NCBI GenBank assembly: GCA_036736085.1
Contig: DAINNB010000001.1
Location: 1-41,420, forward strand
Reading direction: 5' to 3'
Source: Chlamydiales bacterium
GTDB taxonomy: Bacteria > Chlamydiota > Chlamydiia > Chlamydiales > SM23-39
DNA: 41,420 nucleotides
The notes under the pieces were generated by a model. The model ran no database searches and was not told the DNA's origin. It was given only the letters and a program-made list of their open reading frames with translations. The first letter of the stretch is position 1, and each line of letters opens with the position of its first letter. This document shows positions 3,816 through 35,574 of the stretch, in pieces. The position numbers and the translations under genes are program-made.

Positions 3816-4733
3816 ATGAACAAGATGGATAAAATAAAAACTTTTTCTAATTTTATAAATAAATATAAAGTAAGTTTTATGTCGTTTATTAAAAATCATT
3901 TTAAGAAAATTCATCTAAAAGAACAGTTAGGTCAAATTGATGGAATCGATGCGATTTATCTCATTAATTTAGATCAAAGGACTGAGAGAAGAGATCGGTG
4001 TCTTCAGCAGTTGCGGCCTTATGGGATTGTTCCTGAGAGGTTTTCTGCTATTTATGGATGGGAGATTTCTCAGGAGGCATTTGATGAGGTGGGGTTGAAA
4101 TTTCTTCCTCCGATGGGGTTTCTCTTTGACCGGCGCGTGTTTTTTCGTCCTTCAAGTCATCAAGATGTAGGAGAGCGTTTGAATGAATCTTCTTATGGGA
4201 GGACGTGCGTAAATATCTTTACGATTGCAGGAGCGATAGGTTGCGCATTAAGTCATTTATCTTGCCTTCAAGATGCTTTTGATGGTGGGGTGGAGACTGT
4301 TTGGATTTTAGAAGATGATTTAACAGTTTTTCAAAACCCCCGCTATTTGACCTATTTCATGGGAAAACTCGATCAGATTGTGGGCAAAGAGGGGTGGGAT
4401 CTTCTTTATACAGACAACCATCATATTTTTCCTCTTCGGGAAGGGAAGTATTTCCATGTTCGGCCTGATCGCCCTCCTATTCTTCACGCCTACGAAAACT
4501 TTTTAGTAGGAGATGACTTTATTCAAATTAACGGTCGAGCGGAACTACATTCGACCCTTTATCGGCGCTGTGGCATGAAGAAAATTTTAGAGTACTTTCA
4601 CCATTTCGGCATTTTTCATCCCATTGATATTGAGCTCTATAGTATTCCCGATCTTCGTATGTACAACCTAAGATCTGAGATTGTCGGGCATGGAGGATCC
4701 ACACAGTCCGACACAAGAGATCGAGCATTTTGA
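3816..4733 (+). CDS. family 25 glycosyltransferase (LPS/LOS beta-1,4-galactosyltransferase-like)
   Basis: IDAIYLINLDQRTERRDRCLQQL is the GT25 N-terminal signature, and WILEDD is a DXD-like motif. It is paralogous to 35575-36441. By comparison with that paralogue, the start may be a downstream ATG (3879). Confidence 0.8.
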   Translation: MNKMDKIKTFSNFINKYKVSFMSFIKNHFKKIHLKEQLGQIDGIDAIYLINLDQRTERRDRCLQQLRPYGIVPERFSAIYGWEISQEAFDEVGLKFLPPMGFLFDRRVFFRPSSHQDVGERLNESSYGRTCVNIFTIAGAIGCALSHLSCLQDAFDGGVETVWILEDDLTVFQNPRYLTYFMGKLDQIVGKEGWDLLYTDNHHIFPLREGKYFHVRPDRPPILHAYENFLVGDDFIQINGRAELHSTLYRRCGMKKILEYFHHFGIFHPIDIELYSIPDLRMYNLRSEIVGHGGSTQSDTRDRAF

Positions 4734-5596
4734 GGTTTTTGATGACAAACCGCTATGTAAGCTGCTCATTTATAGGACAGCTAGGCAATCAGTTATTTAT
4801 GATTGCTGCTACTTTAAGTTATGCCTGGGATCACCGTGCAATTGCTACTTTCCCTGGACTTCATGATAGCAATTATCGGCTATCTTACAATCGGGATCGA
4901 ATTTTTTTCCGCCTAAATACCTTCCAACCTCCAACTCCTTTGATCAAAGAGTTTGCCCACACCTACTGGTATCCTGTACACCGAATCCCTTACTGTGAAG
5001 ATAATCTCTTTCTTACCGGCTACTACCAATCATGGCACCATTTTCATCATCATAGAGAAAAACTACTCTCTCTCTTCGCCCCTCATCCAGATACATTAGA
5101 CTATCTATCTCAAAAATACAGAGACCTGCTTCACCATCCCTATACTGTAGCGATCCACGTTCGCACTTATTGCCTAAGAGACCATAAAGCGCTGCCTTTT
5201 TTAGGGTTAGATTATATAAAAGACAGCATAAAACTCTTTCCCGGCTCTCCTCAATTTGTCGTTTTTTCCGATCGGATCAATTTGTGCAAAAAACATTTTG
5301 AGCCGCTAGAAGGCAATTTCATTTTTATAGAAGGTAATGACGGCAACCAAGATTTAGCCTTGATGAGCCTCTGCAAACACAACATCATCGCAAATTCCAC
5401 ATTCTCCTGGTGGGCCGCCTACCTGAACCAACATGATCAAAAAAAAGTCGTCGCTCCAGCCCTTGTCTACCGTTCAGGCCCCACGCACCATTTCTACTGC
5501 CCCGAGTGGATACAAATCCCTGTCACCCTTCAACCCTATCCAGAAGATATGCGCGCTTATGATGAAGTCAGTCAGTCGTTTGATAATAACGACTAA
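4730..5596 (+). CDS. family 11 glycosyltransferase (alpha-1,2-fucosyltransferase-like)
   Basis: GQLGNQLF, HVRTY and NSTFSWWAAYLN match the GT11 motifs (GGLGNQ.FQ / HVRRGDY / NSTFSWWAAYL). TTG 4730 overlaps the upstream stop; ATG 4742 is an alternative start. Confidence 0.85.
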   Translation: MRFLMTNRYVSCSFIGQLGNQLFMIAATLSYAWDHRAIATFPGLHDSNYRLSYNRDRIFFRLNTFQPPTPLIKEFAHTYWYPVHRIPYCEDNLFLTGYYQSWHHFHHHREKLLSLFAPHPDTLDYLSQKYRDLLHHPYTVAIHVRTYCLRDHKALPFLGLDYIKDSIKLFPGSPQFVVFSDRINLCKKHFEPLEGNFIFIEGNDGNQDLALMSLCKHNIIANSTFSWWAAYLNQHDQKKVVAPALVYRSGPTHHFYCPEWIQIPVTLQPYPEDMRAYDEVSQSFDNND

Positions 5597-5597
5597 T

Positions 5598-5902
5598 GAA
5601 GGGCTTCGCCCTTAGACCCGCCAAGGGGACACGTCCACTTGGAACCCCTTTTGTTTTTTTATATATAAAGAGGTAATTGCAAAAGTTCATTCGGTGCCAA
5701 ATTCGGGCTTTTTCCGTTGCTTCGGATTTTTCGCGAAGTGCCTACGGCCAAAAGGATATGTCGCTTTGCGAAAAACCAAACCAACGAAAAAATCATCGAA
5801 TTTGGCCCTCGAAGCGACTTTTACAATTGCCTCTAAAAAGAAAAAAGGGAATCCAGAGGGGGCTTGCCCCCTTTGGCGGGTTTAAGGAAGGAGCTCTTTC
5901 GC
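5598..5902. repeat. long palindromic MITE-like element, copy 2 (inverted relative to copy 1)
   Basis: It aligns along its whole length with the reverse complement of 3500-3808, with most positions identical by eye. It starts 1 nt after the GT11 stop codon. Confidence 0.85.
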
Positions 5903-5937: not shown

Positions 5938-6540
5938 CTAAGAAACTGATTCCCATTTTGTGGAATGGATTTGGAGTTCGGGGTGGGAAATGAGGAGGTG
6001 CCATAAAATGGCTTGGAAGCCTTCTGTGTGTGGCGTAATGGCTGAGCGATCTATTGTGGGAACTATGATGCAGGCGTCGGCTTGTTTAGCTGTATAACCT
6101 CCGTCTTTTCCTACGATTCCGATGATTTTGGCTTTTACGTTTTTAGCTGTTTTGATGGCCTCAACGAGGTTTGTTGAGATTTTTTTTTCTTCTGAGCCGC
6201 CGCCTACAGAGAAAATAAAAAGGCCGTCTTTTTCATTGAGTTTGCTTACAGTTAGGTAATTTGCTAGAGAGCTGTCCCAGCCGTCATCGTTGATTCGAGC
6301 TGTGAGCTCGGAGATATTGTCGAGGGGGCAGTAAGCTTCGAAACGTCCGAGTTTTCGAAAGTCGCAAGTAGCGTGGGAAGCATGGCCGGCTCCTCCTCCG
6401 GAGCCAATAAAAAAAAGGCGTCCTTGATCTTCTCGGATTTTTTTTAAGATCAGAGCGCATTTTTCAATCGATTCAAGATCGAGTTTATTGATGATCTGAG
6501 AAGTTTGTGCTAAAAATTGTTTTGCGAACATAGTGATCAA
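5938..6540 (-). CDS. gmhA: SIS-domain sedoheptulose-7-phosphate isomerase (GmhA-like)
   Basis: SIS pattern RLFFIGSGGGAGHASH...FIFSVGGGS...KIIGIVGKDGG, in an operon with gmhB, hddA and hddC. Confidence 0.7.
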   Translation of the reverse strand: MITMFAKQFLAQTSQIINKLDLESIEKCALILKKIREDQGRLFFIGSGGGAGHASHATCDFRKLGRFEAYCPLDNISELTARINDDGWDSSLANYLTVSKLNEKDGLFIFSVGGGSEEKKISTNLVEAIKTAKNVKAKIIGIVGKDGGYTAKQADACIIVPTIDRSAITPHTEGFQAILWHLLISHPELQIHSTKWESVS

Positions 6541-7058
6541 GCCATTTTAAGTATTTTAATAATTTGTTCGAAAGAGTTGCAGTTCATGTCTCCGAGGCCA
6601 TGGATAAACCGGTTGTACTCTGTTTGCAGTAAAATTGTGATGACCCCGGCTCTTTTTCCGGCTTGAAGATCTTTGAGGGAGTCTCCTAGAAAAAAAGATT
6701 GAGAGAGGTCTAGATACAGAGCTTCAGCGCTTTGTAAAAGCATGCCAGGATTAGGTTTGCGACGAATATACGCGTCATTAGAACTTGTGCAGACCTCGAT
6801 TCGATCAAAAGGGATATTTTCCTGGATGACTTGGTGCATTTTTTTGAGTTCTTTTCGAGAAAGAAGGCCCCTTGATACATCGGGTTGGTTTGTCACAAGA
6901 ACAAGGAAAAAACCAAGCTCCTTGGCGATTTGGGCTAGTAGAATCGTATCTGGAATTAAGACAAGCTCTTCGAGGTGGCGAGGAGATTGAGGTTTCCCTT
7001 CTCTCATGACTACTTCATTGACAATTCCATCTCTGTCTAAAAAAAGAGCTCTATTCAT
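6537..7058 (-). CDS. gmhB: HAD-IIIA D,D-heptose 1,7-bisphosphate phosphatase (GmhB-like)
   Basis: ALFLDRDGIVNE (DxDG nucleophile motif), VTNQPDVSRG, RKPNPGML, GDSLKDLQAGKRAG. Confidence 0.8.
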   Translation of the reverse strand: MNRALFLDRDGIVNEVVMREGKPQSPRHLEELVLIPDTILLAQIAKELGFFLVLVTNQPDVSRGLLSRKELKKMHQVIQENIPFDRIEVCTSSNDAYIRRKPNPGMLLQSAEALYLDLSQSFFLGDSLKDLQAGKRAGVITILLQTEYNRFIHGLGDMNCNSFEQIIKILKMA

Positions 7059-8070
7059 GGAGAAGCACCCTAGTTTTTTGAAGATTTGACTGTTCGATGG
7101 CGGCTATCACTTGATTGGCTCTACATCCATCTTCTCCGTTGCCGAGAGGTGGGGTCCTTGCAAAAATGGCTTTCTTAAACTCTTCCCATTCTAACTTCCA
7201 GCTAATGTCCTCATCTGGATAAGAAAAAGTTTTGATTTCTGGAGGACCACCTTCGAGTTTTCTTAACATGCATTCCAAAGTTTCTTGGCCATAGCTGCCT
7301 CCAAGTCCTTGGATATGAAGAGATCCCTTGGATCCGAAAAGCTCAAAAGAGAAAAGGTTTTTCCATTGGGTCCAGCTTACATGGAACATTGCATCGGCGC
7401 CTGAAAGAGTTTTACCTAGAACAAAGGCGTTATCTTCAACATCCATCGGCCAAAAAGCTGTATTAAGAGAAGCGTAGACCTCTGCCCAGCCCCCGCCAAA
7501 CCATTGCATGAGATCAATGATATGGATCCCTTGGTCTAAAAGCTCTCCGCCTCCACATAGGCTTTTGGAGGCTCTCCACTCTTTTTCCATGCCAGGCCGG
7601 CCTCCATGTCCATAACGGGCTCGAAGAGAAAGCAGTTTGCCGATCACACCTTGGTCGATAAGGTTTTTGGCTTTGGCGATAGCTGGATGAAATCGATGAT
7701 TAAACCCGGTTTTAACGATGAGAGTTCGCTTGGATTTTGTCGCTGCATCCAAAATAGCTTTGGATTCTAGAAAATTTCTTCCAAATGGCTTTTCAACGAG
7801 AAGATCTTTTCCCATCTGGAGCGCATGAATCGCTATCTCCGCAGAGAGATGATTAGGAGTAGAGACGATGACTGCATCTACTTCTGGAGATGAGACAGCT
7901 TCTGTCCAATCAACGAGAGCTTGGCAGTGGTGTTGAGAGGCGAGCTTTTCAGCCGATTCTTGATGGATATCGACGACGAAGAGTAACCGGGCCTCTTTGT
8001 CTTTGGCAATTTCAGCGGCTCTTTTTTTCCCGATGAGCCCGCAGCCAATAATGGCGACATTTACTGCCAT
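7051..8070 (-). CDS. Gfo/Idh/MocA family NAD(P)-dependent sugar oxidoreductase
   Basis: N-terminal Rossmann fold VAIIGCGLIGKKR and the family motif LLVEKP. Confidence 0.75.
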   Translation of the reverse strand: MAVNVAIIGCGLIGKKRAAEIAKDKEARLLFVVDIHQESAEKLASQHHCQALVDWTEAVSSPEVDAVIVSTPNHLSAEIAIHALQMGKDLLVEKPFGRNFLESKAILDAATKSKRTLIVKTGFNHRFHPAIAKAKNLIDQGVIGKLLSLRARYGHGGRPGMEKEWRASKSLCGGGELLDQGIHIIDLMQWFGGGWAEVYASLNTAFWPMDVEDNAFVLGKTLSGADAMFHVSWTQWKNLFSFELFGSKGSLHIQGLGGSYGQETLECMLRKLEGGPPEIKTFSYPDEDISWKLEWEEFKKAIFARTPPLGNGEDGCRANQVIAAIEQSNLQKTRVLLHE

Positions 8071-8924
8071 GATAAGCCCCGGTCTTTCGGGATGATTCTG
8101 CGGAGTGTGAATAAATCGCTTTCTTTGAGTTCCTTGATGCGCTGAGGAAACTCTTTCCAGGTATCGTAGGGAGCTGCGATAAATTTTCCTGTAATCCCTC
8201 TTGAGGCATCGGACACAAAGAACGCGGCAGCTGAAGCTCCTAGTTCAATCGGAACTCCTCCCCGGTCCACTTCTTGTTTTGTTTTTTCTACAAATTCAGC
8301 TCCTGCTTTTTCTTGCGCGTTCAAGGTTTGCTCGTGCAGCCGTGTAATCACAAATCCAGGAGCGATGCAGTTGACTTCAATATGATAAGGCGCCATCTCT
8401 TGCGCTATTGTTTCTGTGAAACGGACGACAGCCGCTTTTGAGCAGGCATAGGAAGTATAATTAGGAAACGGCGTTGCAGCGCCTCCTCCGGAAAAAAGGA
8501 CCAGTTTGCCCCCATTTTGCTTTTTCCATCGTTTGCAGCTTTGCCTTGCCACTAAAAAAGAGCCAAAGAGATTGATATGGACTCCTTGAAGCCATTCTTT
8601 AGGGTCCACCTCTGTGATAGATCCGATTGTTCCATAGACTCCTGCAGCATGGATTGTTCCATGAAGAGGTCCAAACTGAGATTCGAAGAGGTTTAGCGCA
8701 TTTTCAATTTGAGATTCTTCTGTGACGTCAGTTACGCAGCCTGAAACTTGAGAAAAACCCTCTTGGCGCAGAGACTCAATCGCCTTTTGAAGCGCCTCTT
8801 CATGCCGCGCGCAAAGAAAAACGTTAGCTTCCCTTTGAAGGCATTGTTTAGCTGCGGCAAGACCAAGCCCCATACTGCCGCCTGTGATGAAAATGTTTTT
8901 CTTTCTTAGATGGAACTCTGTCAT
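8061..8924 (-). CDS. classical short-chain dehydrogenase/reductase (SDR)
   Basis: ITGGSMGLGLA (TGxxxGxG) and YACSKAAV (YxxxK). Confidence 0.8.
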   Translation of the reverse strand: MTEFHLRKKNIFITGGSMGLGLAAAKQCLQREANVFLCARHEEALQKAIESLRQEGFSQVSGCVTDVTEESQIENALNLFESQFGPLHGTIHAAGVYGTIGSITEVDPKEWLQGVHINLFGSFLVARQSCKRWKKQNGGKLVLFSGGGAATPFPNYTSYACSKAAVVRFTETIAQEMAPYHIEVNCIAPGFVITRLHEQTLNAQEKAGAEFVEKTKQEVDRGGVPIELGASAAAFFVSDASRGITGKFIAAPYDTWKEFPQRIKELKESDLFTLRRIIPKDRGLSWQ

Positions 8925-8927
8925 AGA

Positions 8928-10214
8928 TCACATGAGGTGATTGAAAATTGTAAATCCAGAGGCCTGGATTGTTTCGTAGTCATCTGAAAAGTATCCATAA
9001 GGATCAAAAAGCCGTTTAGAGATCATGTGTTCTCCTAGCAGCTGAAAATCTAGATGTTTAAATTCAGGCCACTCCGTTAAGACGAGGAGAAAATCTGCAT
9101 CTTTTCCTAAGTCATAAGGGTTTTGTACTTTAATGATGCCCTCTATTGGTTCTATTTCAGACCAGTCAGCTTTTGGATCGAAAATTTTCACTTTGGCCCC
9201 CTTGCGCGTAAAATCCCGCGCCATCTCTAGCGGTATGCTTCTTCTTAAAGTGCTTGTCCCTGGTTTGTAAGTAACTCCAAGAAAACTGATGGTTTTTTGG
9301 GGGAACTGACCTAAAATTCTTCCCATCTTGTAGACGAGCAATTTGGGTCTTTGTCGATTGTGTTGCCAAATTTCTTGAAAAAAAGGAAACGTCCCTCCAC
9401 CTCTCGAGGTATTAATTTGGCTTAGAATGCGAAGGTCTCTTCCTAAGGTCCCTCCTGAAAATCCGACCCCAGCCTTGATGTAGGCTTTATTTCCAATGCG
9501 CGGATCGTGCTTCATTGCTTGGGTTACCTGCTTAAAATGAGCTTCCGATAAACCGCAGGCATCGGAAAGTTGGTTGGCAAAAGTGATGGATGAGGCCAAA
9601 AAGGCATTGATGGCGTGTTTCGTCATCTCTGCGCTATTTAAATCCATCGTAATGTAAGTGGCTGGAATAGAAGAAAAAAGATCTTTTACTCTTAGGAGCG
9701 CTTTTTCTTTGTTGCACCCGAGGACGATGTGGCCTGGCCGCAGATAATTGGCAATAGCTTCTCCTAGTTTTAGATTTTCCGGAGAATAGACGATGGGATT
9801 TTTCAATTTATTTTGCCATTTTTTGCATGTGCCGACAGGCACCTGCGAACTAATGATTAAAACCGCTTCAGAAGAGAGGTGAGGAGAGATTTTTTCTAAA
9901 GCTTCTTCAAGGATGTGTAGATCATAAAGATCTTGCTCATTGACAGGTGTATCATAGGTCATAAAAATAAATTCGCAGGCTTTTAAGGAACTGGGATCTA
10001 GTGAAAAAGTGATTTGCTTTTTCTCCAAGCCTGATAGCAGTGATGCGTCTAAATCTGGTTCATATAGAGGGGCTTTTCCTTGGGACAACGAATCGATAAG
10101 ACGGAGATCAAAATCACAAGCAATGACCTGATGGCCTAATTTTAGCCAAGCAGCTGCAGCAACACAGCCTAAATGCCAAAGACCAACGATTCCAATAGTG
10201 GGTTTTGTTTTCAC
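8928..10214 (-). CDS. UDP-glucose/GDP-mannose dehydrogenase family protein, atypical (catalytic Cys position appears to be Thr)
   Basis: N-terminal IGIVGLWHLGCVAAAAW Rossmann fold and family-length architecture. The active-site stretch reads GVGFSGGTLGRD where canonical enzymes have GxGFGGSC[FL]PKD. Confidence 0.7.
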   Translation of the reverse strand: MKTKPTIGIVGLWHLGCVAAAAWLKLGHQVIACDFDLRLIDSLSQGKAPLYEPDLDASLLSGLEKKQITFSLDPSSLKACEFIFMTYDTPVNEQDLYDLHILEEALEKISPHLSSEAVLIISSQVPVGTCKKWQNKLKNPIVYSPENLKLGEAIANYLRPGHIVLGCNKEKALLRVKDLFSSIPATYITMDLNSAEMTKHAINAFLASSITFANQLSDACGLSEAHFKQVTQAMKHDPRIGNKAYIKAGVGFSGGTLGRDLRILSQINTSRGGGTFPFFQEIWQHNRQRPKLLVYKMGRILGQFPQKTISFLGVTYKPGTSTLRRSIPLEMARDFTRKGAKVKIFDPKADWSEIEPIEGIIKVQNPYDLGKDADFLLVLTEWPEFKHLDFQLLGEHMISKRLFDPYGYFSDDYETIQASGFTIFNHLM

Positions 10215-11134
10215 AGTACATGCTCCTTAATAAATTGAATCGATAGCCTCAGCCCTTCTTCTAAAGATGTTTTTGGTTGCCATCCCAAAGACTTTGCTTC
10301 ATTTATGCAAGCTAATGTTTCTTCCGCTTCTCCCGGCAAGTTGGGCAGATAGGTAGGTTTTAGTGGAGAAGAAAGAAGGTTTTTAATTTTTTCAAAAATT
10401 TCTTGAATTGAATAATTTGATCCGCTTCCTAAGTTAAAGACTCTCCCATCAGTTCGAGGATCGGAAATAGCCTGTAGATGAAAATCATTGATATCGTCTA
10501 TATAAACAAAGTCTCTTTTTTTAGTTCCTGATCCGTAAATTACAGGGGACTTGTCTTGTAGAAGATGGAGGATGAAAGAGCTCATGACAGGAGGGATTGT
10601 CCTTCTGTAATCTTGCCTTGGCCCATAGACGCAAAAATATCTTAAGGCTGTTAATGAAAGATCTGAGTATTTTTTATAGCTCTCGGCAAGCAAACGGGCA
10701 GCAGCTTTGCTAGCAGCATAAAAGCTTTCTGGGGCCGTTTCTGTTTCAGGGGTCGGCATAAGCTGAATCCCTTCATATAAAGCTGAAGATTCTGCATAGA
10801 TTACTTTTCTAACTTGAGCGCGCCTGGCTGCTTCAAGAATATTGACAGTGCCCATGACGTTAATATCTACGGTCTCTACAGGATCCAACTGGCAGTCATG
10901 AATACAGTTTTTTGCTGCTAAATGAAAGATAGTGTCCACTTTTTTAAACAAAGGATAAATCTCTTGGCTTCGGATATCGAGAGAGTGAAATTGTAGTCCA
11001 GAGGGAACTTGCTTTAAGGAGCCCGCTGATAAATTATCAATTCCTATGACCTCATAAATGCCTTCGCGAAGAAGTCTTTCTGCCAAATTAGAGCCAATAA
11101 AGCCTGCAACGCCTGTGATTAAAATTTTTTTCAT
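10211..11134 (-). CDS. extended-SDR NAD-dependent nucleotide-sugar epimerase/dehydratase
   Basis: KILITGVAGFIGSNL and YAASKAA (YxxxK). Confidence 0.8.
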   Translation of the reverse strand: MKKILITGVAGFIGSNLAERLLREGIYEVIGIDNLSAGSLKQVPSGLQFHSLDIRSQEIYPLFKKVDTIFHLAAKNCIHDCQLDPVETVDINVMGTVNILEAARRAQVRKVIYAESSALYEGIQLMPTPETETAPESFYAASKAAARLLAESYKKYSDLSLTALRYFCVYGPRQDYRRTIPPVMSSFILHLLQDKSPVIYGSGTKKRDFVYIDDINDFHLQAISDPRTDGRVFNLGSGSNYSIQEIFEKIKNLLSSPLKPTYLPNLPGEAEETLACINEAKSLGWQPKTSLEEGLRLSIQFIKEHVL

Positions 11135-11839
11135 TTAATTATTGATTATAGTTAAAGCGTTTTGATAACTTTCAGGTGTGTCTATTCCTAAGCAGTATCC
11201 TTCAATTATGTGTCCAGATATTTTTATATCATTATGTATGCATTTTGGAAATAAATCGTTACCGAAATCGAAAAAAGTTTCTTCTGGTATAATTTCTAAG
11301 ATTTTAGGTTCTAATAAATAGACTCCTGCGTTGACATAATTTGAAATTGCTTGATTTCCTCCCTCAATAAAACCTTGAACGTAAGATCCTTTTAAAACAA
11401 CCCTGCCGCCGGCGATCCCTGTGTGAAGATGTTTTGAGCGATCAAAGACTCCAATCGACAGAGGCGTTTTCTGAGATTGGTGAAAGGAGATGAAGGTGTC
11501 GAGCGAAAATTGAAAAAGGTTGTCTCCATAGACGACTAAAAAAGTCTCTTTCCACTCTTCTTGCAGATGTTTTACAGCTCCAGCGGTTCCTAAAATTTCA
11601 GGCTCAAAAGCATATTGTATATTGAGTCCTAAATCATCTCCTTGGCCCAAATGGTTAATGATGTCTTCGGCTCTATAATGTAAATTAATCCAGATATCGC
11701 GAAAGCCAAATTGAGCAAGCCAGGTTAAATTTCTTTTAAGAACAGACTTCCCATGAACTTCGATCAGCGGTTTAGGAAGTCCTTTTGAAATAGAGGCAAT
11801 GCGGGTGCTTTTCCCTGCAGCTAATACTAATGCTTTCAT
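11135..11839 (-). CDS. hddC: sugar-1-phosphate nucleotidyltransferase, HddC-like (D-glycero-alpha-D-manno-heptose-1-P guanylyltransferase)
   Basis: MKALVLAAGKSTRI...LPKPLIEV is the nucleotidyltransferase signature. It lies directly downstream of the HddA-like kinase. Confidence 0.7.
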   Translation of the reverse strand: MKALVLAAGKSTRIASISKGLPKPLIEVHGKSVLKRNLTWLAQFGFRDIWINLHYRAEDIINHLGQGDDLGLNIQYAFEPEILGTAGAVKHLQEEWKETFLVVYGDNLFQFSLDTFISFHQSQKTPLSIGVFDRSKHLHTGIAGGRVVLKGSYVQGFIEGGNQAISNYVNAGVYLLEPKILEIIPEETFFDFGNDLFPKCIHNDIKISGHIIEGYCLGIDTPESYQNALTIINN

Positions 11840-11841
11840 TC

Positions 11842-12840
11842 TTAAAAATTTCCGACAATTTTTGATCCTTCAAAATTGAATGAGCACTGCTTATACCTGA
11901 GACCTGCATTTTCTAAGGCTGCTCGAAGAGTCTTTCTTTTCCCCTGTTCGCAGCAAAAGACAAAGAATCCCCCGCCTCCAGCTCCCATGACTTTTCCTCC
12001 GATTGCTCCATTTTGTCGAGCCAGATCATACCATTCATCGAGTCTAGAGGAGCTCATTTTGGAAGAGATCCGTTTTTTTTCTAGCCAGTGTTCATGGAAG
12101 AGTTTTCCCAAAGCTTCAATATCTCCTTGTTCTAAAGCTTCCTTGATATCGAACCCGATGCTTTTAATTTTATGCATAGCTTCGAGAGAATGATGGTTGT
12201 TTTTTTTGAGAATTTGCATCTGCTGATCTCCCAGTATCTCATTGGCGTCTCTTTGAATATTTGTATAAAAGATCATGAGCCTGTGTTGAAGCTCTGCTAG
12301 AAATTCTTTTTCCAAGTTGAGCCTCTCTACAATGACTTTGCCAGTCCGATCTATATTGAGAGCTATAATCCCTCCAAAAGCGGCTGCATATTGATCTTGC
12401 TTGCCTACGGGTTTTCCAATGAGCTCCATTTCTACTTTGCAAGCCTCTTCTGCAAGCTCTTGAACAGAAACATGGCGCCGCAAAAGAGTATTGAGTCCAT
12501 TGAGAAGCCCTACTGTATAAGAGCTGGAAGAGCCAAGTCCCGTTCCAGATGCGATATCGGCCATGGAACTGATTTCAAGGGGAGTTTTCCACTTCAGATA
12601 TTTTAACGTTTCTCTCACGACGTCGTGTCGGATCTGATCGATATCGTCTACATTCAAGCATTCGACTTGAGAATAATTCAGCTTGATCTGGTCGAGCATG
12701 ACGGGCTGATTGATACAGATATTCATGTGCAGATCTAAAGCAGCTGTGACCAAAAAACCGCCGTGCTCTCTGTAATAAGAGGGAAGGTCTGTTCCGCCTC
12801 CTCCTAATGGAAGCCTGAAAGGGGTTCGGCTGACAATCAT
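11842..12840 (-). CDS. hddA: GHMP-family D-glycero-alpha-D-manno-heptose-7-phosphate kinase (HddA-like)
   Basis: MIVSRTPFRLPLGGGGTDLPSYYREHGG closely follows the HddA N-terminus. GHMP motif GTGLGSSSS is present. Confidence 0.75.
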   Translation of the reverse strand: MIVSRTPFRLPLGGGGTDLPSYYREHGGFLVTAALDLHMNICINQPVMLDQIKLNYSQVECLNVDDIDQIRHDVVRETLKYLKWKTPLEISSMADIASGTGLGSSSSYTVGLLNGLNTLLRRHVSVQELAEEACKVEMELIGKPVGKQDQYAAAFGGIIALNIDRTGKVIVERLNLEKEFLAELQHRLMIFYTNIQRDANEILGDQQMQILKKNNHHSLEAMHKIKSIGFDIKEALEQGDIEALGKLFHEHWLEKKRISSKMSSSRLDEWYDLARQNGAIGGKVMGAGGGGFFVFCCEQGKRKTLRAALENAGLRYKQCSFNFEGSKIVGNF

Positions 12841-12850
12841 AAAACTCTCC

Positions 12851-13885
12851 TTAGAAACGATCTTTTAATTTGGATACATCAGCTCTCATCATGATTTTGA
12901 CGAGCTCTTCTACGGAAGTTTTTGGCTCCCAATGCAGTTTCGATTTAGCTTTGTGAGGAGCTCCCAGCAAGATATCAACTTCGGTCGGACGGAAGTATTC
13001 AGGAGAGACCTCTACTAAAACTTTTCCTGTTTTTCTATCGATCCCTTCTTCATAGATTCCAGATCCTACCCACCCAATGTTAATATCTAAAAACTGAAAA
13101 GCTAGTTCAACAAAATGTCTGACTGAAGTGGTTTTCCCTGTTGCCAGCACATAGTCATCTGCCAAAGGTTGTTGGAGCATAAGCCACATCCCTTCTACAA
13201 AATCATCGGCGTAGCCCCAATCTCTCTTGGCGTCCAAATTCCCTAAGATGAGCTTATTTTGCAGTCCTAAACTGATCTTAGAAGCGGCTATCGTGATTTT
13301 TCTCGATACAAATGTCTCTCCTCTTCTAGGACTTTCGTGGTTGAATAAAATCCCGTTGCAAGCAAAGAGGTTGTAAGCTTCTCTATAGTTGATGCAGGCC
13401 CAATAGGCATACAATTTAGCAACTCCGTAAGGAGATCTTGGATGGAAAGGGGTCGTCTCTGTCTGAGGCGTCTCTTTGACCTGGCCAAAGAGCTCGGACG
13501 TTGATGCTTGATAAAATTTTGCTTTCGGGTGCACTGTCCGAATGATCTCTAAAAGCCGAATAGTGCCTAAATCGGCAATATTTCCCGTATATTCAGGAAC
13601 TTCGAAAGAGACTTTCACATGGCTCATCGAGGCCAAGTTGTAAATCTCTTCAGGCGCTATTTTCTCTACAAGCTTCATTAAGTTAGAAGAGTCGCCTAAG
13701 TCTCCTTCATATAAAAATAACCTGTCTTTATATTCTTTATTTTTTAAAAGATGAGCAATCCTTGAGCAATTGGGCGAAGAGGCTCTTCTTATTAAGCCAT
13801 GCACTACGTAATTTTTTTTTAAGAGAAATTCTGTTAAATAAGATCCGTCTTGCCCTGTAATTCCTGTAATAAAAGCTTGTTTCAT
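12851..13885 (-). CDS. gmd: GDP-mannose 4,6-dehydratase family (Gmd; could equally act on GDP-heptose, DmhA-like)
   Basis: [43 protein letters not shown] and [10 protein letters not shown] are all classic Gmd motifs. Confidence 0.9.
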
Positions 13886-15114
13886 AGGGCTCTTCCATGG
13901 TCGGGGATTAGAGAGAGCCTTGGAACGGGAACGACAAACTTCCCCCCTTTGGAGAGAAAAGATTTTTCTCTCGTTAAAAACTCATCCATAAAATGGTAAG
14001 GAAGCGTGAAAAAATAGTCGGGGTTCATCTTTCGAGCCTCTTCTTCGGAAATAATCGGAATTCCTGTGACGGTTAACCGTCCATGTTTAATCGGGTAGCG
14101 GTCTGCGATAAAGGGGATAAGCTCTGGACCTATTTCCAAATAGGATAAAATCGTATTCCCTTTCGTTGAAGCTCCATATCCAAGGACAAGTTTGTTTAAT
14201 CTTTTTTGCGTTTTAAGAAAGTTGATGATTTCTTTTTTATTCTCTTGGATTCTTTTTTCGAATTGCTGATACGTTGCTGGTTCATTGAGTTTGAGAGATT
14301 TTTCTTTTTCTCTCATTTTGATGACATTGTCCGTTACAGAAGCCTGCCCTTTTTTTCGAACATAGAGCCGAAAGCTTCCTCCGTTGACATCATTGAGCTC
14401 CACGTCTTCTACTTCAAAGCCGCTTTGATCAAAAATATAGTCCATGGCCTGCAGGCTATAGTACTCTAGGTGCTCTGAGCAGATCGTATCAAAAGAGTTT
14501 CTCTCGAGCATTGTCGGAAGATAACTGTGCTCCAAAATCCATAGCCCGTTGTCTTTTAAAATGTTATGGACGTCTTTAGCGAATTGGACTGGATTTTCCA
14601 GATCGTAAAACATCGATATGCTCGTCACAATATCGGCCTTTTTTTCCCCGAGATGCTTTTGATAGGCCTCTTTGCTAAAGTAGGTATTAATATGGAGATC
14701 GCACTGCTTTGGTTTGATGTTTTTGGCCGGATCGATCCCCACTCGGAAAAAATGGCTAGGATAAGCGCTAAGTAAAGTGCCGTCATTCGATGCGATATCT
14801 ACGACGAGCGGTTTTTCTCCGAGCGTAGCTTTGCAGCGATCGAGAGCGCTCAGAACAATCGATTTTAAAGCGAGCTTCATCGAATCATTCACCCCAGACA
14901 TGTACCAATATTGGGAATACATCTCATCGGGATCTACAGTGTGGCGGAGCTGCACTAAGCCGGAATTGGGATTCAGGCAGACCGTTACGGGAAGCCGCTT
15001 GGGCGTTGGATCTTTCTTGTCAGGAAACGAGGAAAGCGGCAAATCTCCTAAATTTAAAATATCAATTAATTTTCCGCCTGAAATGCGACATTTTATTTTT
15101 TTTGATATTTTCAT
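13882..15114 (-). CDS. NDP-sugar C-methyltransferase family protein (TylCIII-like architecture)
   Basis: ~410 aa with a central SAM fold [12 protein letters not shown]. It is colinear with paralogue 33629-34876, which has the N-terminal CxxC...CxxC zinc ribbon; here the N-terminal cysteines are mostly lost. Its stop overlaps the gmd start (ATGA). Confidence 0.65.
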
Positions 15115-15151
15115 AAAAGGATTTCTCTATGTATTTTGGTTTTTTAAAGCA

Positions 15152-15180
15152 TTGTCAATATTCCAATGTTAATTTAAAGT
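15152..15180 (+). promoter_or_regulatory. candidate sigma70-type promoter in divergent intergenic region
   Basis: TTGTCA (15152-15157), 17 nt, then TAAAGT (15175-15180), about 25 nt upstream of the ATG at 15205. Pattern match only. Confidence 0.25.
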
Positions 15181-15204
15181 AAAATTTTATTCCAAGACAT
15201 TAAA

Positions 15205-16167
15205 ATGAGTCAGAAGAAAGTATTAATTTGCGGCGCGAGCGGTTTTATTGGTCATTATCTTGTTAAAAAATATAAAAAAGAAGGACATTGGGTTTGCGGC
15301 GTTAGTAGAAACTCTCCTCAATATGAGGCGAGTCTTGCCCATGAATTTATCTTGGCCGATTTAAAAGACCCTGGCGCTTTGGAAAAGGTTTTTCAAAAAG
15401 GGCCGTTTGACGAAGTATGCCAGTGTGCGGCGACCATTGGAGGCGCCCAATTTATAGAGGCTCATTCTGCTCAAATTCTTCGCGACTCTACCTTAATTCA
15501 TCTGAATGTATTGGAAATGTGTCGAAAAAGGGGAGTAGCCAAGATCTTATATCCCTCATCGGCTTGCGTCTACCCCATTCCTTCTTCAGAAACGTGCCTC
15601 TCTTCAAAGTACTCAGAAACTTCAGTCTATCCAGCCAACCCTTATACAGAATATGGCTGGGAGAAAATTTTTGGGGAGAGGGTTTGCATGGCTTATCAGA
15701 AAAAATATGGGCTCGATATTCGGATTGCCCGTCTTTTCAGCGTTTTCGGCCCGCTTAGCCCTTGGGATGGAGGAAAAGAGAAGGCTCCGTCTGCTTTATG
15801 CCGCAAAATCGCTTTGGCTAAAGAAGGGGATTTTATCGAAGTGTTCGGCAGCGGCGAGCAAAAAAGAGCCTTTTTATCGATCGATGACTGTGTGGAAGGT
15901 CTTTGGCGGATCATGCAGGCCCCAGGTCCCTTGCCTATTTTAAATTTAGGTTCTGAAACCCAAATTTCGATGAATCAACTAGCCCTTTTAATTGCTGATA
16001 TAGCTAAGAAGAAAATCAAAATTAAAAATATCGGAGCCCAAATCGGGTTTCATGAGATGACCTCCGACAATCGATTGCTTTATGAAACGCTTCATTGGAA
16101 GCCCGAAGAAAACATTCGGGATGGTTTGGAAAATCTTTATTTTTGGATAGAAGGAAAATTGATTTGA
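15205..16167 (+). CDS. GDP-mannose 3,5-epimerase-like extended SDR (divergent paralogue of 27203-28225)
   Basis: VLICGASGFIGHYL, SSACVYP, YGWEK and GGKEKAPSALCRK parallel the GME motifs SSACIYPE / GGREKAPAAFCRK. Confidence 0.65.
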   Translation: MSQKKVLICGASGFIGHYLVKKYKKEGHWVCGVSRNSPQYEASLAHEFILADLKDPGALEKVFQKGPFDEVCQCAATIGGAQFIEAHSAQILRDSTLIHLNVLEMCRKRGVAKILYPSSACVYPIPSSETCLSSKYSETSVYPANPYTEYGWEKIFGERVCMAYQKKYGLDIRIARLFSVFGPLSPWDGGKEKAPSALCRKIALAKEGDFIEVFGSGEQKRAFLSIDDCVEGLWRIMQAPGPLPILNLGSETQISMNQLALLIADIAKKKIKIKNIGAQIGFHEMTSDNRLLYETLHWKPEENIRDGLENLYFWIEGKLI

Positions 16168-17985: not shown

Positions 17986-18885
17986 TTAGGCTTGGAGTTG
18001 TTCTTTTTTGGTGCAGCGGAGGATGTAGAGGTTGCTGGCTACGATGATGGCTGCGCCGAGGACGGTGTTGAGGTCTACGATTTTTTGCCACCAGAAGAAG
18101 TCGAGGGCTACGACCCAGAAGAAAGATGAGTAGTCGATGGGGGCCAGGAGTGAGGCTTGGGCGAAGCGGAGAGCTTGAGCGATGAGGTATTGTCCAAACG
18201 CGGTGATGGCTCCTACGAGGAGGAAGAGGGCCCAGTGGGTCCAGGGCATAGGGGTCCAGATAGTGAAGAGAAAGGGGAGGGTGAAGAGGATCATGGTGAG
18301 GTTGGGGTAGATGGCAATCGAGAGGCTGTGTTCCGTTTCGGCGAGGCGTCTCATGAGGATTTTGTTGAGCGAGCCTAGGAAGGCTCCAAGGAGGACGAGC
18401 AGAGCTGTCCATTCCATGACGCCGGAGCCTGGCCGCGTTGCGATGACGACGCCCAGCATGCCGAGGGCGACGGCTGCCCATCTATGCCAGGAGACCTTTT
18501 CTTTTAGCATAATGGCGCTAAGGAGGATCATGAAAAAGGGAGAGGTGTAAGAGAGGGTGTAGACCTCTGTCAAAGAGCCCATTGACATGGCTAGCATAAA
18601 AGAGCAGGTGTAGACGAGGTTTACTCCGAGCCGTACGGCATGTCTTGCGGGGTGAGAGGTGCTGAGGACTTTTTTTACGCCTCCTTGAAAGTAAACTGCG
18701 ACGAGGAGGGGGATGAGCCTTGTCAGCGCCCTTAGAATCATGGTTTGTTTGACGGCGTAGCTTGACATGAGATGCTTGAGGCAGGCGTCGGAAAGGGCGT
18801 AACAGATAAGAGCGAGACACATCGCGGAAACGCCCATAAAGGCTCGATCTTGAAGGCTTCTATTAGACTCTCTTGCTTGCGTCAT
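17986..18885 (-). CDS. EamA/DMT-superfamily transporter (10-TM type)
   Basis: 299 aa and highly hydrophobic, with two EamA-like halves. Its nucleotide composition and codon usage differ strikingly from its neighbours: GC-rich, with C-ending codons (CTC, ATC, GCC, GTC, ACC, TAC). Confidence 0.8.
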   Translation of the reverse strand: MTQARESNRSLQDRAFMGVSAMCLALICYALSDACLKHLMSSYAVKQTMILRALTRLIPLLVAVYFQGGVKKVLSTSHPARHAVRLGVNLVYTCSFMLAMSMGSLTEVYTLSYTSPFFMILLSAIMLKEKVSWHRWAAVALGMLGVVIATRPGSGVMEWTALLVLLGAFLGSLNKILMRRLAETEHSLSIAIYPNLTMILFTLPFLFTIWTPMPWTHWALFLLVGAITAFGQYLIAQALRFAQASLLAPIDYSSFFWVVALDFFWWQKIVDLNTVLGAAIIVASNLYILRCTKKEQLQA

Positions 18886-18932: not shown

Positions 18933-19745
18933 TTATAAAATCGGTTTTTTGGCTTTGATCAAAAGATGCCACCCAGCTTTTTTTTCAAGAACGTGGAAAA
19001 GCTTGAGAGGGAGGAGGTTCCAGGGAAATTTTTTTACATAATTTAATTTTTTATATTCTTTCAGACGATAAGGAAAGATGTGTGTTTTTTTGCATTCAAT
19101 GATTTCAAATTTTTCTAATAATTTAGTAATTTCTTTTTTCGAGAAAGTGACGGCGATCGGACATCCTGGCTGGGCTTCGGGTTGAGCCCTTTTTAGATAA
19201 ATTAAAAAATTTTTAATGCTATATTTAGCATAGAGCATGATCCTTAGCTCTCCTCCAGGCTTAAGGACCTTGAAACATTCATTGAGAGCCAACGTGGGAC
19301 GGGGAGTATGATGAAGGACGCCGAAGGAATAAACGAGATCAAATTGTTTGTTTGGAAAATAGGAAGCAAGTTCTTCCGCATTGCCTAAAATAAAATCGGC
19401 TTTAAGATTAAAAACCTTAAATCTTTTTTTTGTGATTGCGATATTATTTTCAGCTAGGTCCAAAGAGGTCAAGAGAGCTCCGGCTCTAGCGAAATTGATC
19501 GAATCGGTCCCTATTCCACAGCCTACTTCCAAAACATCCTTCCCCTTCCATCTTTCAAAGTCAGCAAATAAAGGGATATGAGGTTCTACGAAATATTTTC
19601 TTTTTTCGACCTCATTGAAATATTCTAAAGTTCCGATGGGAAAGTTACTGTGTTTTATATTACAAGGCTGTCTATTCCAATACTCTTTTACGTTGTGAAT
19701 TTGCATGCAATTTCGTTGATCTGTCTCATTACTGTATGAGCCCAT
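18933..19745 (-). CDS. class I SAM-dependent methyltransferase
   Basis: VLEVGCGIGTDSINFA (motif I) and LKPGGEL (post-II). The internal ATG at 19706 (MQIHNV...) is a likelier start because it shortens the overlap with the upstream gene. Confidence 0.8.
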   Translation of the reverse strand: MGSYSNETDQRNCMQIHNVKEYWNRQPCNIKHSNFPIGTLEYFNEVEKRKYFVEPHIPLFADFERWKGKDVLEVGCGIGTDSINFARAGALLTSLDLAENNIAITKKRFKVFNLKADFILGNAEELASYFPNKQFDLVYSFGVLHHTPRPTLALNECFKVLKPGGELRIMLYAKYSIKNFLIYLKRAQPEAQPGCPIAVTFSKKEITKLLEKFEIIECKKTHIFPYRLKEYKKLNYVKKFPWNLLPLKLFHVLEKKAGWHLLIKAKKPIL

Positions 19746-20704
19746 TCTTCTGGTAAAAATGGAGTTATTTGAGGACTTTTTAAAAACTTCTGAGCTTCGT
19801 TTAAATAATTTTGATATGTTTTTTTATCTATGCTTTTTAGAAATAAATAAAGTTCTTCGTCAGAAGAAAAATGATCGCGGCTGATGAAACAAGTGGACGG
19901 CACGTACTTGGTAATATCTGGAGCTCCCAGATAAATAGGAACGCATTGAGAATACATTGCCTGGAATAGTCTTTCCGTTGTAAATCCGCGGGCTTGAATA
20001 TTCTCGTAGGCGAGGGTAAATTTGTAATTTTTCAGGAGATTATTTTTTAGAAATACCGTTTCTTCTGTTCTTCCCGTTTTGTTCCAAGGACATGGGCCTA
20101 GCCTACCCCGCCAAGCTGGATATCCTTCCCAGCCTGCGCCAAATAGGTCGAACCCTTCTTTGCTTGAAAAATAACTGGCAGAAGCTCTTCTTGCGGGGGT
20201 TCCAGGATTAACTTGGGGATCGTTCGTTTGAATCATGACGCAAAATTTTTTATCCTCGAAGGCTGGGATGTTTCCGACGACTTTGTTTTCTGTAATGCGA
20301 TGGAAATATTTGAAGAATAACCGGTTATCGACCAAATCTTCGAATAGGATAAATATTTTCCCATAAAAATCTCCAAGCCGTCTGTCATACATCCATTGGC
20401 AATGCGTAGGAGGTTCTTGTACGAATAAAAAACATCGCTCTTTAGGAACTTTGGAGTAAGCGAGGCCTTCGAGGAGCCTTGAATTAAGTAGACAGGTACT
20501 AAACACGCACATGGCGTTTTTCAGATCAAAGCTATTGTTAGTTACTTTGAATTCATATCCTGCCTTTTCTACAGCTTCTCTGATGCGCATGTAAGGGACG
20601 GCAACCCCGTCTGGCAAAGCAAAGCGATCATAGTAGTAATTTTTTTCAGCCATGTCCACGACTAGCGCGTAGACGACATTTTTTTTATTAGGATCATCAC
20701 TCAT
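19688..20704 (-). CDS. family 10 glycosyltransferase (alpha-1,3/4-fucosyltransferase-like)
   Basis: KKFCVMIQTN...FDLFGAGW...YKFTLAYENIQARGFTTERLFQAMYSQCVPIYLGAPD matches the GT10 core motif F.L.FEN....DY.TEK......g.VPVy.G. Confidence 0.85.
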   Translation of the reverse strand: MSDDPNKKNVVYALVVDMAEKNYYYDRFALPDGVAVPYMRIREAVEKAGYEFKVTNNSFDLKNAMCVFSTCLLNSRLLEGLAYSKVPKERCFLFVQEPPTHCQWMYDRRLGDFYGKIFILFEDLVDNRLFFKYFHRITENKVVGNIPAFEDKKFCVMIQTNDPQVNPGTPARRASASYFSSKEGFDLFGAGWEGYPAWRGRLGPCPWNKTGRTEETVFLKNNLLKNYKFTLAYENIQARGFTTERLFQAMYSQCVPIYLGAPDITKYVPSTCFISRDHFSSDEELYLFLKSIDKKTYQNYLNEAQKFLKSPQITPFLPEEWAHTVMRQINEIACKFTT

Positions 20705-29061: not shown

Positions 29062-29189
29062 GTAATTCTCTTTTATTTTTTGATTAATTGTATTTTTATT
29101 TGCTTTGATATGTGTCAATCTATATAAAAAATGTTTTTATGTAAAAGTTTTTGTGTTCTCATAGTTTTATAATATTGGGGAGGAATCTG

Positions 29190-33617: not shown

Positions 33618-33628
33618 GGATTTCGTCC

Positions 33629-34876: not shown

Positions 34877-34882
34877 GAAACC

Positions 34883-35540: not shown

Positions 35541-35574
35541 CTCGTAACATCGCCATTTCTCTCAGGATAAATTT

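Follow-up and report, generated by a model that had tools for sequence, protein, structure and literature searches.

In lincomycin biosynthesis an eight-carbon sugar phosphate is built from ribose-5-phosphate and a three-carbon donor by LmbR and LmbN, and the genes lmbRSOPZNML are packed closely together, overlapping by 4 bp (PMC7014725). The roles assigned in this pathway are those of a transaldolase (LmbR), an isomerase (LmbN), a kinase (LmbP), a phosphatase (LmbK), a guanylyltransferase (LmbO), an epimerase (LmbM), a "dehydrogenase" (LmbL), an "oxidoreductase" (LmbZ/CcbZ), and an aminotransferase (LmbS) (PMC4351081). A second described system is the GDP-heptose route, whose enzymes as listed for Campylobacter jejuni include neither a transaldolase nor enzymes related to UDP-glucose 6-dehydrogenase (UGDH) or to the Gfo/Idh/MocA family (Gfo) (PMC10680097). 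A third is the route to L-virenose proposed in silico for Coxiella burnetii, which consists of a guanylyltransferase, a GDP-mannose 4,6-dehydratase (GMD), a TylCIII-type 3-C-methyltransferase, and GMER (PMC3539893). Here we analyze, with these systems in mind, a ten-gene operon on the minus strand of a 41,420-nucleotide stretch of DNA (hereafter the window) from a Chlamydiales bacterium (GenBank assembly GCA_036736085.1, contig DAINNB010000001.1).

We conclude that the operon is probably a chimera: two nucleotide-sugar modules, each conserved independently of the other, would be joined in it to serve a large glycan island. Module A consists of a C-methyltransferase and a canonical Gmd. Module B consists of the eight genes that follow, for a kinase, a nucleotidyltransferase, an epimerase, a UGDH-like protein, a short-chain dehydrogenase/reductase (SDR), a Gfo protein, a HAD phosphatase, and a SIS isomerase. 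The closest described system to module B is the lincomycin octose pathway. We infer the chemical steps, the nucleotide carrier, and the number of carbon atoms in both modules from sequence comparison.

Two Modules Conserved Separately

Ten minus-strand open reading frames (ORFs) of 173–428 aa fill positions 5938–15114 head to tail (Table 1), with junctions that range from −10 to +10 nt (in order of transcription, −4, +10, +2, 0, −4, +3, −10, −8, and −4 nt). All ten ORFs have strong Pfam matches to the families that an earlier, sequence-only reading of this DNA had named, and they are therefore ten real genes in the order proposed. The SIS gene opens with a TTG codon, and an ATG lies three codons further in. 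A single transcript for the block is plausible from this layout. Thus, the block, its order, its families, and its tight coupling were described correctly. The same reading had also treated the ten genes as one pathway, and this we have given up in favor of a fusion of two modules, because each module is conserved on its own and the two are joined only here.

The evidence comes from the neighborhoods of relatives. We sampled 80 metagenome loci anchored on close and distant relatives of the C-methyltransferase. A canonical-type Gmd adjoins the C-methyltransferase in all six of its closest relatives (60%–65% identity), and many relatives of 41%–47% identity show the order Gmd, C-methyltransferase, and a second, Gmd/Rmd-like SDR. 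An HddA-like kinase was found nearby in a single one of the 80 loci. Because the pair recurs without heptose genes, we regard it as a module of its own.

The reciprocal picture was obtained with the kinase, orthologues of which are found at 45%–90% identity across many phyla (the nearest named ones, at 71%–76%, are from metagenome-assembled genomes of Chlamydiales, which makes an environmental chlamydia the probable source of the window). A scan of the kinase alignment with one genome per species yielded 80 loci at 45%–76% identity. The bacterial loci were from Chlamydiales, Bacteroidota, Ignavibacteria, Kryptoniota, Verrucomicrobiota, Chloroflexota, Myxococcota, Acidobacteriota, and candidate phyla, and the archaeal ones were from Bathyarchaeia, Woesearchaeota, and Micrarchaeota. 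Of 83 kinase-anchored loci, none has the C-methyltransferase as a neighbor and a single one has Gmd. In the closest relative (loci L001 and L002, kinase 87% identical) the entire order kinase, nucleotidyltransferase, epimerase, UGDH-like, SDR, Gfo, HAD, and SIS is kept in the absence of the C-methyltransferase and Gmd, and a GT25 glycosyltransferase gene is inserted on the opposite strand.

Gene content was counted in the 47 kinase loci that had enough flanking DNA. Near the kinase were a SIS gene (39 of 47), a nucleotidyltransferase gene (36), a HAD gene (30), a transaldolase-family gene (29–30), Gfo and SDR genes together (23, with Gfo alone in one more), and a UGDH-like gene (nine, eight of them with both Gfo and SDR), and Gmd and the C-methyltransferase were present in one and none, respectively. 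The isomerase, anomeric kinase, phosphatase, and nucleotidyltransferase families, all of which are present in the operon, co-occur in most of these loci. Cultured carriers of the module, transaldolase included, are Lawsonia intracellularis (plasmid 3) and Rhizobium jaguaris CCGE525 (replicon pRCCGE525c). The range of module B includes Chlamydiales, Bacteroidota, Lawsonia, and Rhizobium among bacteria and DPANN and Bathyarchaeia among archaea. Control kinases of 32%–36% identity, from R. leguminosarum and Lawsonia plasmid 1, lie in other contexts and are accompanied by neither a transaldolase nor the UGDH-like, SDR, and Gfo genes.

Two of these loci have features of their own. On Lawsonia plasmid 3 (NC_008014.1:14573–22924) a gene that encodes a protein with a lysylphosphatidylglycerol-synthase-type transmembrane domain splits the module, and the flanking genes encode two hypothetical proteins, each longer than 1000 aa, and a GH99-like protein. 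In L001 a second kinase (38% identical), nucleotidyltransferase (29% identical), and epimerase set lies 7 kb upstream of the module (L001:2126–4818), and organisms of this type would therefore run two distinct HddA-type pathways. We considered this pair as the "true" HddA and HddC and rejected the idea, as there was no clean split: the second kinase scores lower against HddA (130 bits) and the second nucleotidyltransferase is more HddC-like (148 bits).

Table 1. Operon Genes and Flanking Features in the Window
Feature	Length	Position	Strand	Module	Basis or comment
C-methyltransferase, NDP-4-keto-sugar 3-C-methyltransferase	410 aa	13882–15114	−	A	Pfam; TylC3-type structures
Gmd, canonical GDP-mannose 4,6-dehydratase	344 aa	12851–13885	−	A	TIGR01472; solved Gmds
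HddA-like GHMP anomeric sugar-phosphate kinase	332 aa	11842–12840	−	B	GHMP N and C domains
Sugar-1-phosphate nucleotidyltransferase	234 aa	11135–11839	−	B	Pfam NTP_transferase
GalE-type extended-SDR epimerase	307 aa	10211–11134	−	B	Pfam Epimerase
Cys-less UGDH-like protein	428 aa	8928–10214	−	B	Three UDPG_MGDP_dh domains; GTG start
Classical SDR (FabG/glucose-1-dehydrogenase-like)	287 aa	8061–8924	−	B	Pfam adh_short
Gfo/Idh/MocA NAD(P) sugar oxidoreductase	339 aa	7051–8070	−	B	Pfam GFO_IDH_MocA and C-terminal domains
HAD-IIIA GmhB-like sugar-bisphosphate phosphatase	173 aa	6537–7058	−	B	TIGR01656, TIGR01662
Divergent GmhA-like SIS ketose-phosphate isomerase	200 aa	5938–6540	−	B	Pfam SIS_2
Fcl/GMER-like extended SDR (epimerase/4-reductase)	320 aa	15205–16167	+	A (probably)	Divergent
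ManC, mannose-1-phosphate guanylyltransferase without phosphomannose isomerase (PMI) domain	342 aa	16934–17962	+	Feeds A (probably)	
AT-rich divergent spacer	90 nt	15115–15204			Presumed promoter region for the operon and + strand genes
Terminator-like GC-rich hairpin (GGGGGC-AA-GCCCCC) and T-run		~5835–5875	−		Motif 5858–5871; RNA fold of downstream segment

A Canonical Gmd Paired with a C-Methyltransferase

The C-methyltransferase carries the Pfam domains Methyltransf_13 (zinc; PF08421), Methyltransf_23 (PF13489), and Methyltransf_14 (PF08484), that is, the N-terminal zinc domain, S-adenosylmethionine (SAM) fold, and C-terminal Methyltransf_14 domain of the TylC3/TcaB9 type. Among solved structures it matches TylC3 (4rv9) at 3e-51 (residues 8–405) and KijD1 and TcaB9 at ~1e-37, in each case over its own full length, although these enzymes use TDP-2,6-dideoxy-4-keto sugars and not GDP-sugars. 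An exact-identity lookup of the protein returned no record. Its stop codon overlaps the start of gmd by 4 nt.

The sequence-only reading had likened the Gmd homologue to DmhA, an enzyme of 6-deoxyheptose synthesis. The protein is instead a canonical Gmd. It passes the TIGR01472 equivalog model with 531.6 bits (cut-off 415) over residues 2–339 of its 344 residues, and its matches to Gmds of solved structure have E values of 1e-129 to 1e-101 (342–436 bits), with those of Aquifex, human, and Escherichia coli at 1e-129 to 1e-120. The GDP-D-glycero-D-manno-heptose 4,6-dehydratase of C. jejuni (7us5), in contrast, is matched at 4e-31 (111 bits), and we have ruled out a DmhA-like identity on this ground.

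Two plus-strand genes transcribed divergently from the spacer upstream of the operon encode enzymes that fit a GDP-mannose-based route. ManC has the Pfam NTP_transferase domain and the ManC β-helix and scores 323.8 bits against TIGR01479 (cut-off 373), matching only the mannose-1-phosphate guanylyltransferase (GMP) part of that model. The best NCBIfam model for the other protein, an Fcl-like SDR, is GDP-L-fucose synthase (112 bits, cut-off 500), so that it is distant from Fcl and, in this, differs from its counterpart in Coxiella. It is 50% identical to a paralogue at 27203–28225.

ManC, Gmd, the C-methyltransferase, and the Fcl-like SDR correspond to the four enzyme types of the Coxiella virenose route, a comparison system that is itself an in silico proposal. 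By this likeness mannose-1-phosphate would be converted to GDP-mannose, from which Gmd would produce GDP-4-keto-6-deoxy-D-mannose; the TylC3-type enzyme would then place a SAM-derived methyl group on C3, and the Fcl-like enzyme would epimerize and reduce the product. By analogy, the product of module A is probably a GDP-6-deoxy-3-C-methylhexose of the virenose/evalose class. The analogy to virenose, which the sequence-only reading had drawn, thus survives for the type of chemistry and fails for the link to heptose, as the pair belongs to a separate, GDP-mannose-based branch.

These results bear on the idea of a single pathway, in which a DmhA-like Gmd would carry out 4,6-dehydration and C-methylation and redox tailoring would follow, to give one C-methyl-6-deoxyheptose. 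The ten genes are indeed co-directional and coupled, with Gmd 10 nt from the kinase, and TylC3-like C-methyltransferases act on the type of 4-keto sugar that a 4,6-dehydratase releases. But Gmd is canonical, the C-methyltransferase and Gmd pair recurs without any heptose genes, the eight-gene block recurs without either of them (the closest relative included), and the neighboring manC and Fcl-like genes complete a GDP-mannose-based route. We consider a single pathway highly improbable.

A Core Distinct from the Curated GDP-Heptose Enzymes

Like the GDP-heptose route, module B has a SIS isomerase, a GHMP anomeric kinase, a HAD-IIIA phosphatase, and a nucleotidyltransferase, and the sequence-only reading had identified these as GmhA, HddA, GmhB, and HddC. 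The families and the logic of isomerase, kinase, phosphatase, and nucleotidyltransferase stand, but the assignment fails at the level of orthologues. The best NCBIfam model for the kinase is HddA (NF049969), at 192.2 bits against a cut-off of 600, and its solved relatives are HddA/WcbL (~1e-45) and fucokinase (1e-18). The best model for the nucleotidyltransferase is mannose-1-phosphate guanylyltransferase (108 bits), with HddC (NF049965) sixth at 80.8 bits against a cut-off of 300, and the protein matches the UGPase structure 8x7s at 2e-28 and Yersinia pseudotuberculosis HddC at 9e-22. The HAD protein falls short of three GmhB models (NF050049, 72.1 bits against 250; TIGR00213, 76.1 against 149.6; and NF006506, 89.6 against 178) and passes only the domain cut-offs of TIGR01656 and TIGR01662 (generic HAD-IIIA, histidinol-phosphatase).

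The SIS protein is very distant from its curated namesake, with 47.8 bits against a cut-off of 209 for GmhA (TIGR00441). GmhA proteins are its sole solved relatives (2e-8), and the core motifs of GmhA are kept, whereas the catalytic Glu is replaced by Asp and the ST(S/T)GxS phosphate loop has a six-residue insertion. SIS orthologues in the modules of other phyla are 53%–62% identical to it. Meanwhile, the Lawsonia kinase orthologue reaches 178 bits against the HddA model, the other core orthologues of Lawsonia are likewise below their cut-offs, and the RefSeq names of the Lawsonia module orthologues are generic. Judged by these profile scores and identities, the four core proteins belong to an orthologous module distinct from the curated GDP-heptose enzymes, and this module differs from the GDP-heptose route also in being usually accompanied by a dedicated transaldolase and often by the UGDH-like, SDR, and Gfo trio.

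By the logic of the core, the SIS isomerase would convert a ketose ω-phosphate to an aldose, the GHMP kinase would phosphorylate the anomeric carbon, the HAD-IIIA phosphatase would take off the distal phosphate, and the nucleotidyltransferase would form a nucleoside diphosphate (NDP)-sugar. By analogy to the described systems, the nucleotide is most likely GDP.

The phosphatase has a possible substitute in other loci. A gene of the phosphofructokinase (PFK) family takes the place of the HAD gene in L003, L005, L006, L008, L010, L012, L015, L018, L020, L035, L045, and L065 (for example, L005:9982–11157), which are from Bacteroidota, Ignavibacteria, Kryptoniota, and Chromatiales. Within the 47 counted loci, 30 have HAD only, eight have PFK only, and none has both. 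The PFK of the module carries the motif GGED...SKTIDND, the signature (PFK residues 104 and 124) of pyrophosphate (PPi)-dependent, reversible PFKs, and an enzyme of this type might remove the distal phosphate phosphorolytically.

The Epimerase and the UGDH-Like, SDR, and Gfo Trio

The epimerase matches solved UDP-glucose 4-epimerases at 1e-49. It has the Y139AASK triad and lacks the TDE motif of dehydratases, and within the module it is 60%–65% identical across phyla.

The UGDH-like protein has the three-domain architecture of UGDH, AlgD, WbpA, and Cap5O, passes TIGR03026 (276 bits, cut-off 189.8), and has the UGDH 4a7p as its best solved match (2e-49). It differs from all of these enzymes in its catalytic motifs: GGTLGRD and GLWHLG are found in place of GGxCxxKD and GxGxxG, so that a Thr stands where the Cys nucleophile should be. 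This replacement is present in all 14 module orthologues and in the Lawsonia protein, and an exhaustive search showed it in 144 of its 150 top-scoring representative clusters. In 128 of the 144 Thr-type clusters GxGxxG has become GxWHxG, whereas Cys-type sequences keep the Gly. Two other UGDH paralogues in the window retain both the catalytic Cys and the Gly. Because the catalytic Cys is absent, the classical four-electron oxidation is unlikely, and we have rejected a uronic acid as the product of this protein. The "oxidized" product that had been suggested for the operon is thus unlikely to arise by the classical UGDH mechanism.

The classical SDR has the Y159xxxK motif and is probably a ketoreductase. 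The Gfo protein has an EKP motif at residue 93; among solved structures it comes closest to sugar and inositol dehydrogenases (1e-30 to 1e-24), and its module orthologues are 41%–54% identical. A UGDH-like domain is fused to a classical SDR in four clusters (P0180, P0212, P0214, and P0262), in both domain orders, and these fusions match the 3-nt junction between the UGDH-like and SDR genes in the window. Moreover, SDR accompanies Gfo in 23 of 24 loci. Because of the fusions, and because Gfo and SDR are almost never separated, we propose that the three proteins act as a unit. Two further clusters have an unusual pairing, a GT2 glycosyltransferase domain fused to a Cys-less UGDH-like domain (P0188, 714 aa; P0193, 829 aa).

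As a fifth step of module B, the GalE-type epimerase and the trio would tailor the sugar, probably in its exocyclic side chain. The most economical chemistry for the trio, given its families and motifs, would be oxidation of the side chain, perhaps accompanied by dehydration, and then a ketoreduction. By analogy with LmbL and LmbZ, the outcome could be deoxygenation of the chain end.

The redox enzymes might alternatively come from other, unrelated sugar pathways and share the operon by chance. Glycan islands commonly mix the genes of several pathways, the core is found without Gfo and SDR in 23 of the 47 loci, and among curated models the kinase, HAD, and SIS proteins score best with HddA, GmhB, and GmhA. 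These proteins and the nucleotidyltransferase, however, lie far below the equivalog cut-offs, and Gfo and SDR accompany the kinase module in just as many loci (23 of 47) from unrelated phyla. The UGDH-like protein is with both in eight of nine cases, the same trio is present in the modules of Lawsonia and R. jaguaris, and the trio is missing from the context of kinases of 32%–36% identity. A chance association is, in our judgment, improbable, and we favor a module in which the trio acts on the product of the core.

Transaldolase and the Lincosamide Parallel

In relatives, module B is associated with a transaldolase of one of two types. The type found in Bacteroidota, Lawsonia, and Rhizobium passes the TIGR02134 equivalog (342 bits, cut-off 282), and the second is FSA/TalC-like. 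Apart from lincomycin biosynthesis, no report in the literature that we searched links HddA, HddC, or GmhA to a transaldolase. Indeed, lincosamide biosynthesis is the only described pathway that we found to unite a heptose-type core with an epimerase, a "dehydrogenase," an "oxidoreductase," and a dedicated transaldolase in one translationally coupled block.

The resemblance, which is drawn at the level of family composition and not from comparison with the Lmb sequences, pairs the SIS, GHMP kinase, HAD, nucleotidyltransferase, epimerase, UGDH-family, and Gfo proteins with LmbN, LmbP, LmbK, LmbO, LmbM, LmbL, and LmbZ. The last two pairings are in part our assumption: LmbL, which we take to be UGDH-like, and LmbZ, which we take to be Gfo-like, are called just "dehydrogenase" and "oxidoreductase" in the papers on which we rely. 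There are also differences. The lmb genes form an antibiotic cluster, whereas module B lies in a glycosyltransferase-rich surface-glycan island; a classical SDR stands where the lincosamide route has the aminotransferase LmbS; and an LmbR-type transaldolase is missing from the window. No pyridoxal-phosphate (PLP)-dependent aminotransferase of the LmbS type is present in the operon, and the sole DegT gene (29151–30293) belongs elsewhere in the island. A match on a Streptomyces plasmid is to a different cluster (SIS, HAD, GalT, and kinase) and not to lmb, and the only Streptomyces matches in a plasmid tblastn search with the UGDH-like protein were ordinary UGDHs. Ten high-GC members of the UGDH-like subfamily all came from metagenomes and bore nothing but automatic labels.

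Module B could accordingly be read as a lincosamide-type GDP-octose pathway for a cell-surface glycan. A transaldolase would produce octulose-8-phosphate from ribose-5-phosphate, and the SIS, kinase, HAD, and nucleotidyltransferase proteins would convert it to an NDP-octose. The epimerase, UGDH-like, and Gfo proteins would then carry out a 6,8-type dehydration as LmbM, LmbL, and LmbZ do, and the SDR would reduce the keto group where lincomycin biosynthesis transaminates, to yield an NDP-8-deoxy-octose. Such a pathway is suggested by a single block, compact like that of lmbRSOPZNML, in which LmbN, LmbP, LmbK, LmbO, LmbM, LmbL, and LmbZ all have a counterpart of their family, and by the dedicated transaldolase that accompanies the module in Lawsonia, R. 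jaguaris, and about 30 of the 47 counted loci. It also agrees with the great distance of the SIS protein from GmhA and its altered phosphate loop, with a UGDH-like protein that cannot be a classical 6-dehydrogenase, and with the C. jejuni GDP-heptose tailoring enzymes, which include no UGDH-like or Gfo protein (PMC10680097). The resemblance to the Lmb proteins is nevertheless one of family composition, and LmbL and LmbZ are described by function only. Transaldolase also yields sedoheptulose-7-phosphate. Many loci have the core and a transaldolase without the redox trio, and we know of no report of an aldo-octose in a bacterial glycan, which we count against an octose. The window and three Chlamydiales loci, finally, have no transaldolase and yet keep the other eight genes intact, a pattern that fits a dispensable role in precursor supply. 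On balance a lincosamide-type octose pathway is a tentative possibility that we hold to be the less probable one.

The parallel to lincomycin is weakened by the missing transaldolase in the window and the Chlamydiales loci and by the ability of transaldolase to provide sedoheptulose-7-phosphate as well. For the module in the window, we give about an even chance that the substrate is sedoheptulose-7-phosphate and the product a heptose. Octulose-8-phosphate, with an octose product as in lincomycin biosynthesis, is a distinctly weaker candidate, and some other substrate is less probable again. The product of module B is thus likely a side-chain-tailored NDP-heptose and, less probably, an NDP-octose.

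The Surrounding Glycan Island

All 41 kb of the window belong to a glycan island. It encodes four GT10, three GT11, and two GT25 paralogues and a GT2-TPR protein, FkbM and other methyltransferases, ManC, two Fcl-like SDRs, two further UGDH paralogues, a DegT aminotransferase, and a second C-methyltransferase operon. Scans of the window for tRNAs and Rfam families found no features. The glycosyltransferase paralogues (GT10, 33%–43% identity; GT11, 51%–52%; GT25, 39%) are encoded at 4730–5596, 19688–20704, 23423–24394, 25171–26067, 30297–31190, 37497–38372, 39920–40891, 3816–4733, and 35575–36441. Together with the two Fcl-like SDRs (15205–16167 and 27203–28225; 50% identity), these families suggest that the glycan is highly diversified and that GDP-6-deoxy-sugars are its basis.

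At the boundaries of the ten-gene operon, the terminator-like hairpin lies ~70 nt past the last stop codon, in the convergent spacer shared with the GT11 gene at 4730–5596, and the spacer upstream is presumed to be the promoter region for the operon and the plus-strand genes; −35/−10-like sites at this spacer (minus strand, 15213–15184; plus strand, 15152–15180) are not above chance.

The second C-methyltransferase operon (31279–36441, plus strand) is unrelated to the first and has the DegT gene nearby. It encodes a Cys-containing UGDH/WecC-like dehydrogenase, a LegB-like extended SDR, a C-methyltransferase that is 26% identical to that of module A, a hexapeptide acyltransferase, and a GT25 protein, a composition that suggests another C-branched sugar, probably an amino or acetamido one. 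The Chlamydiales locus L004 has a homologous trio upstream of its copy of module B, and in this locus a manC gene is also found directly upstream of the kinase gene.

A third UGDH-family gene (26075–27193, minus strand, 372 aa) lacks the C-terminal UDP-binding domain and keeps the catalytic Cys (GGPCFPRD), and its L001 counterpart (371 aa) is 69% identical. The gene for an EamA-family transporter (17986–18885, minus strand) is a compositional outlier (54.4% GC, window 40.7%), with strong swings in GC skew nearby, and may have been acquired recently. There are two probable gene remnants: a 124-aa ORF at 24657–25031 (plus strand) that matches the C-terminal half only of the FkbM methyltransferase profile, and a 75-aa stretch at 41075–41299 (minus strand) that is 53% identical to the N-terminal part of the protein, unassigned to a family, that is encoded at 20742–21683.

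Discussion

Some of our observations weigh against a fusion of two modules with the chemistry proposed. The tight junction between Gmd and the kinase (10 nt) might mean that the two modules are functionally connected. A scan for consensus promoters and terminators inside the block gave counts that were not above those of shuffled controls. The probable role of the Fcl-like SDR in module A is drawn by analogy, from adjacency and the virenose proposal, its score against the GDP-L-fucose synthase model being low (112 bits, cut-off 500). The nucleotidyltransferases of module B are 24%–40% identical between lineages, that of Lawsonia being MurU-like, and because they differ in this way GDP as the carrier is an assumption. 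Finally, tblastn found no transaldolase in the window, and none is present in the Chlamydiales loci L001, L002, and L004. Against these points stands the separate conservation of each module, and we continue to regard the operon as probably a chimera.

The recurrence of the C-methyltransferase and Gmd pair suggests that GDP-based synthesis of 3-C-methyl-6-deoxyhexoses is common in environmental bacteria, whereas it had before been proposed only for the virenose of Coxiella. As for module B, the automatic labels "galactokinase," "UDP-glucose 6-dehydrogenase," and "heptose-7-phosphate kinase" hide what appears to be a coherent, widespread, and uncharacterized pathway for a higher-carbon sugar. 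The Cys-less GxWHxG branch of the UGDH family, with at least 144 clusters at 50% identity, offers a lead for enzymology, as it cannot work as UGDH does. Because R. jaguaris CCGE525, which is culturable, and L. intracellularis, an obligate intracellular pathogen of pigs, carry the module, its product could be identified directly.

On a bolder view, for which we see some chance but no better, module B would correspond, within primary metabolism, to the lincosamide GDP-octose pathway and might be its evolutionary origin, and its product would be an NDP-octose for surface glycans that probably lacks an oxygen at the end of the chain; the GxWHxG/Thr subfamily would then be a new kind of side-chain-modifying enzyme that works with an SDR and a Gfo protein. 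An octose, should this be the product, would be the first known in any structural glycan and would tie the biosynthesis of an antibiotic sugar to the metabolism of the cell envelope.

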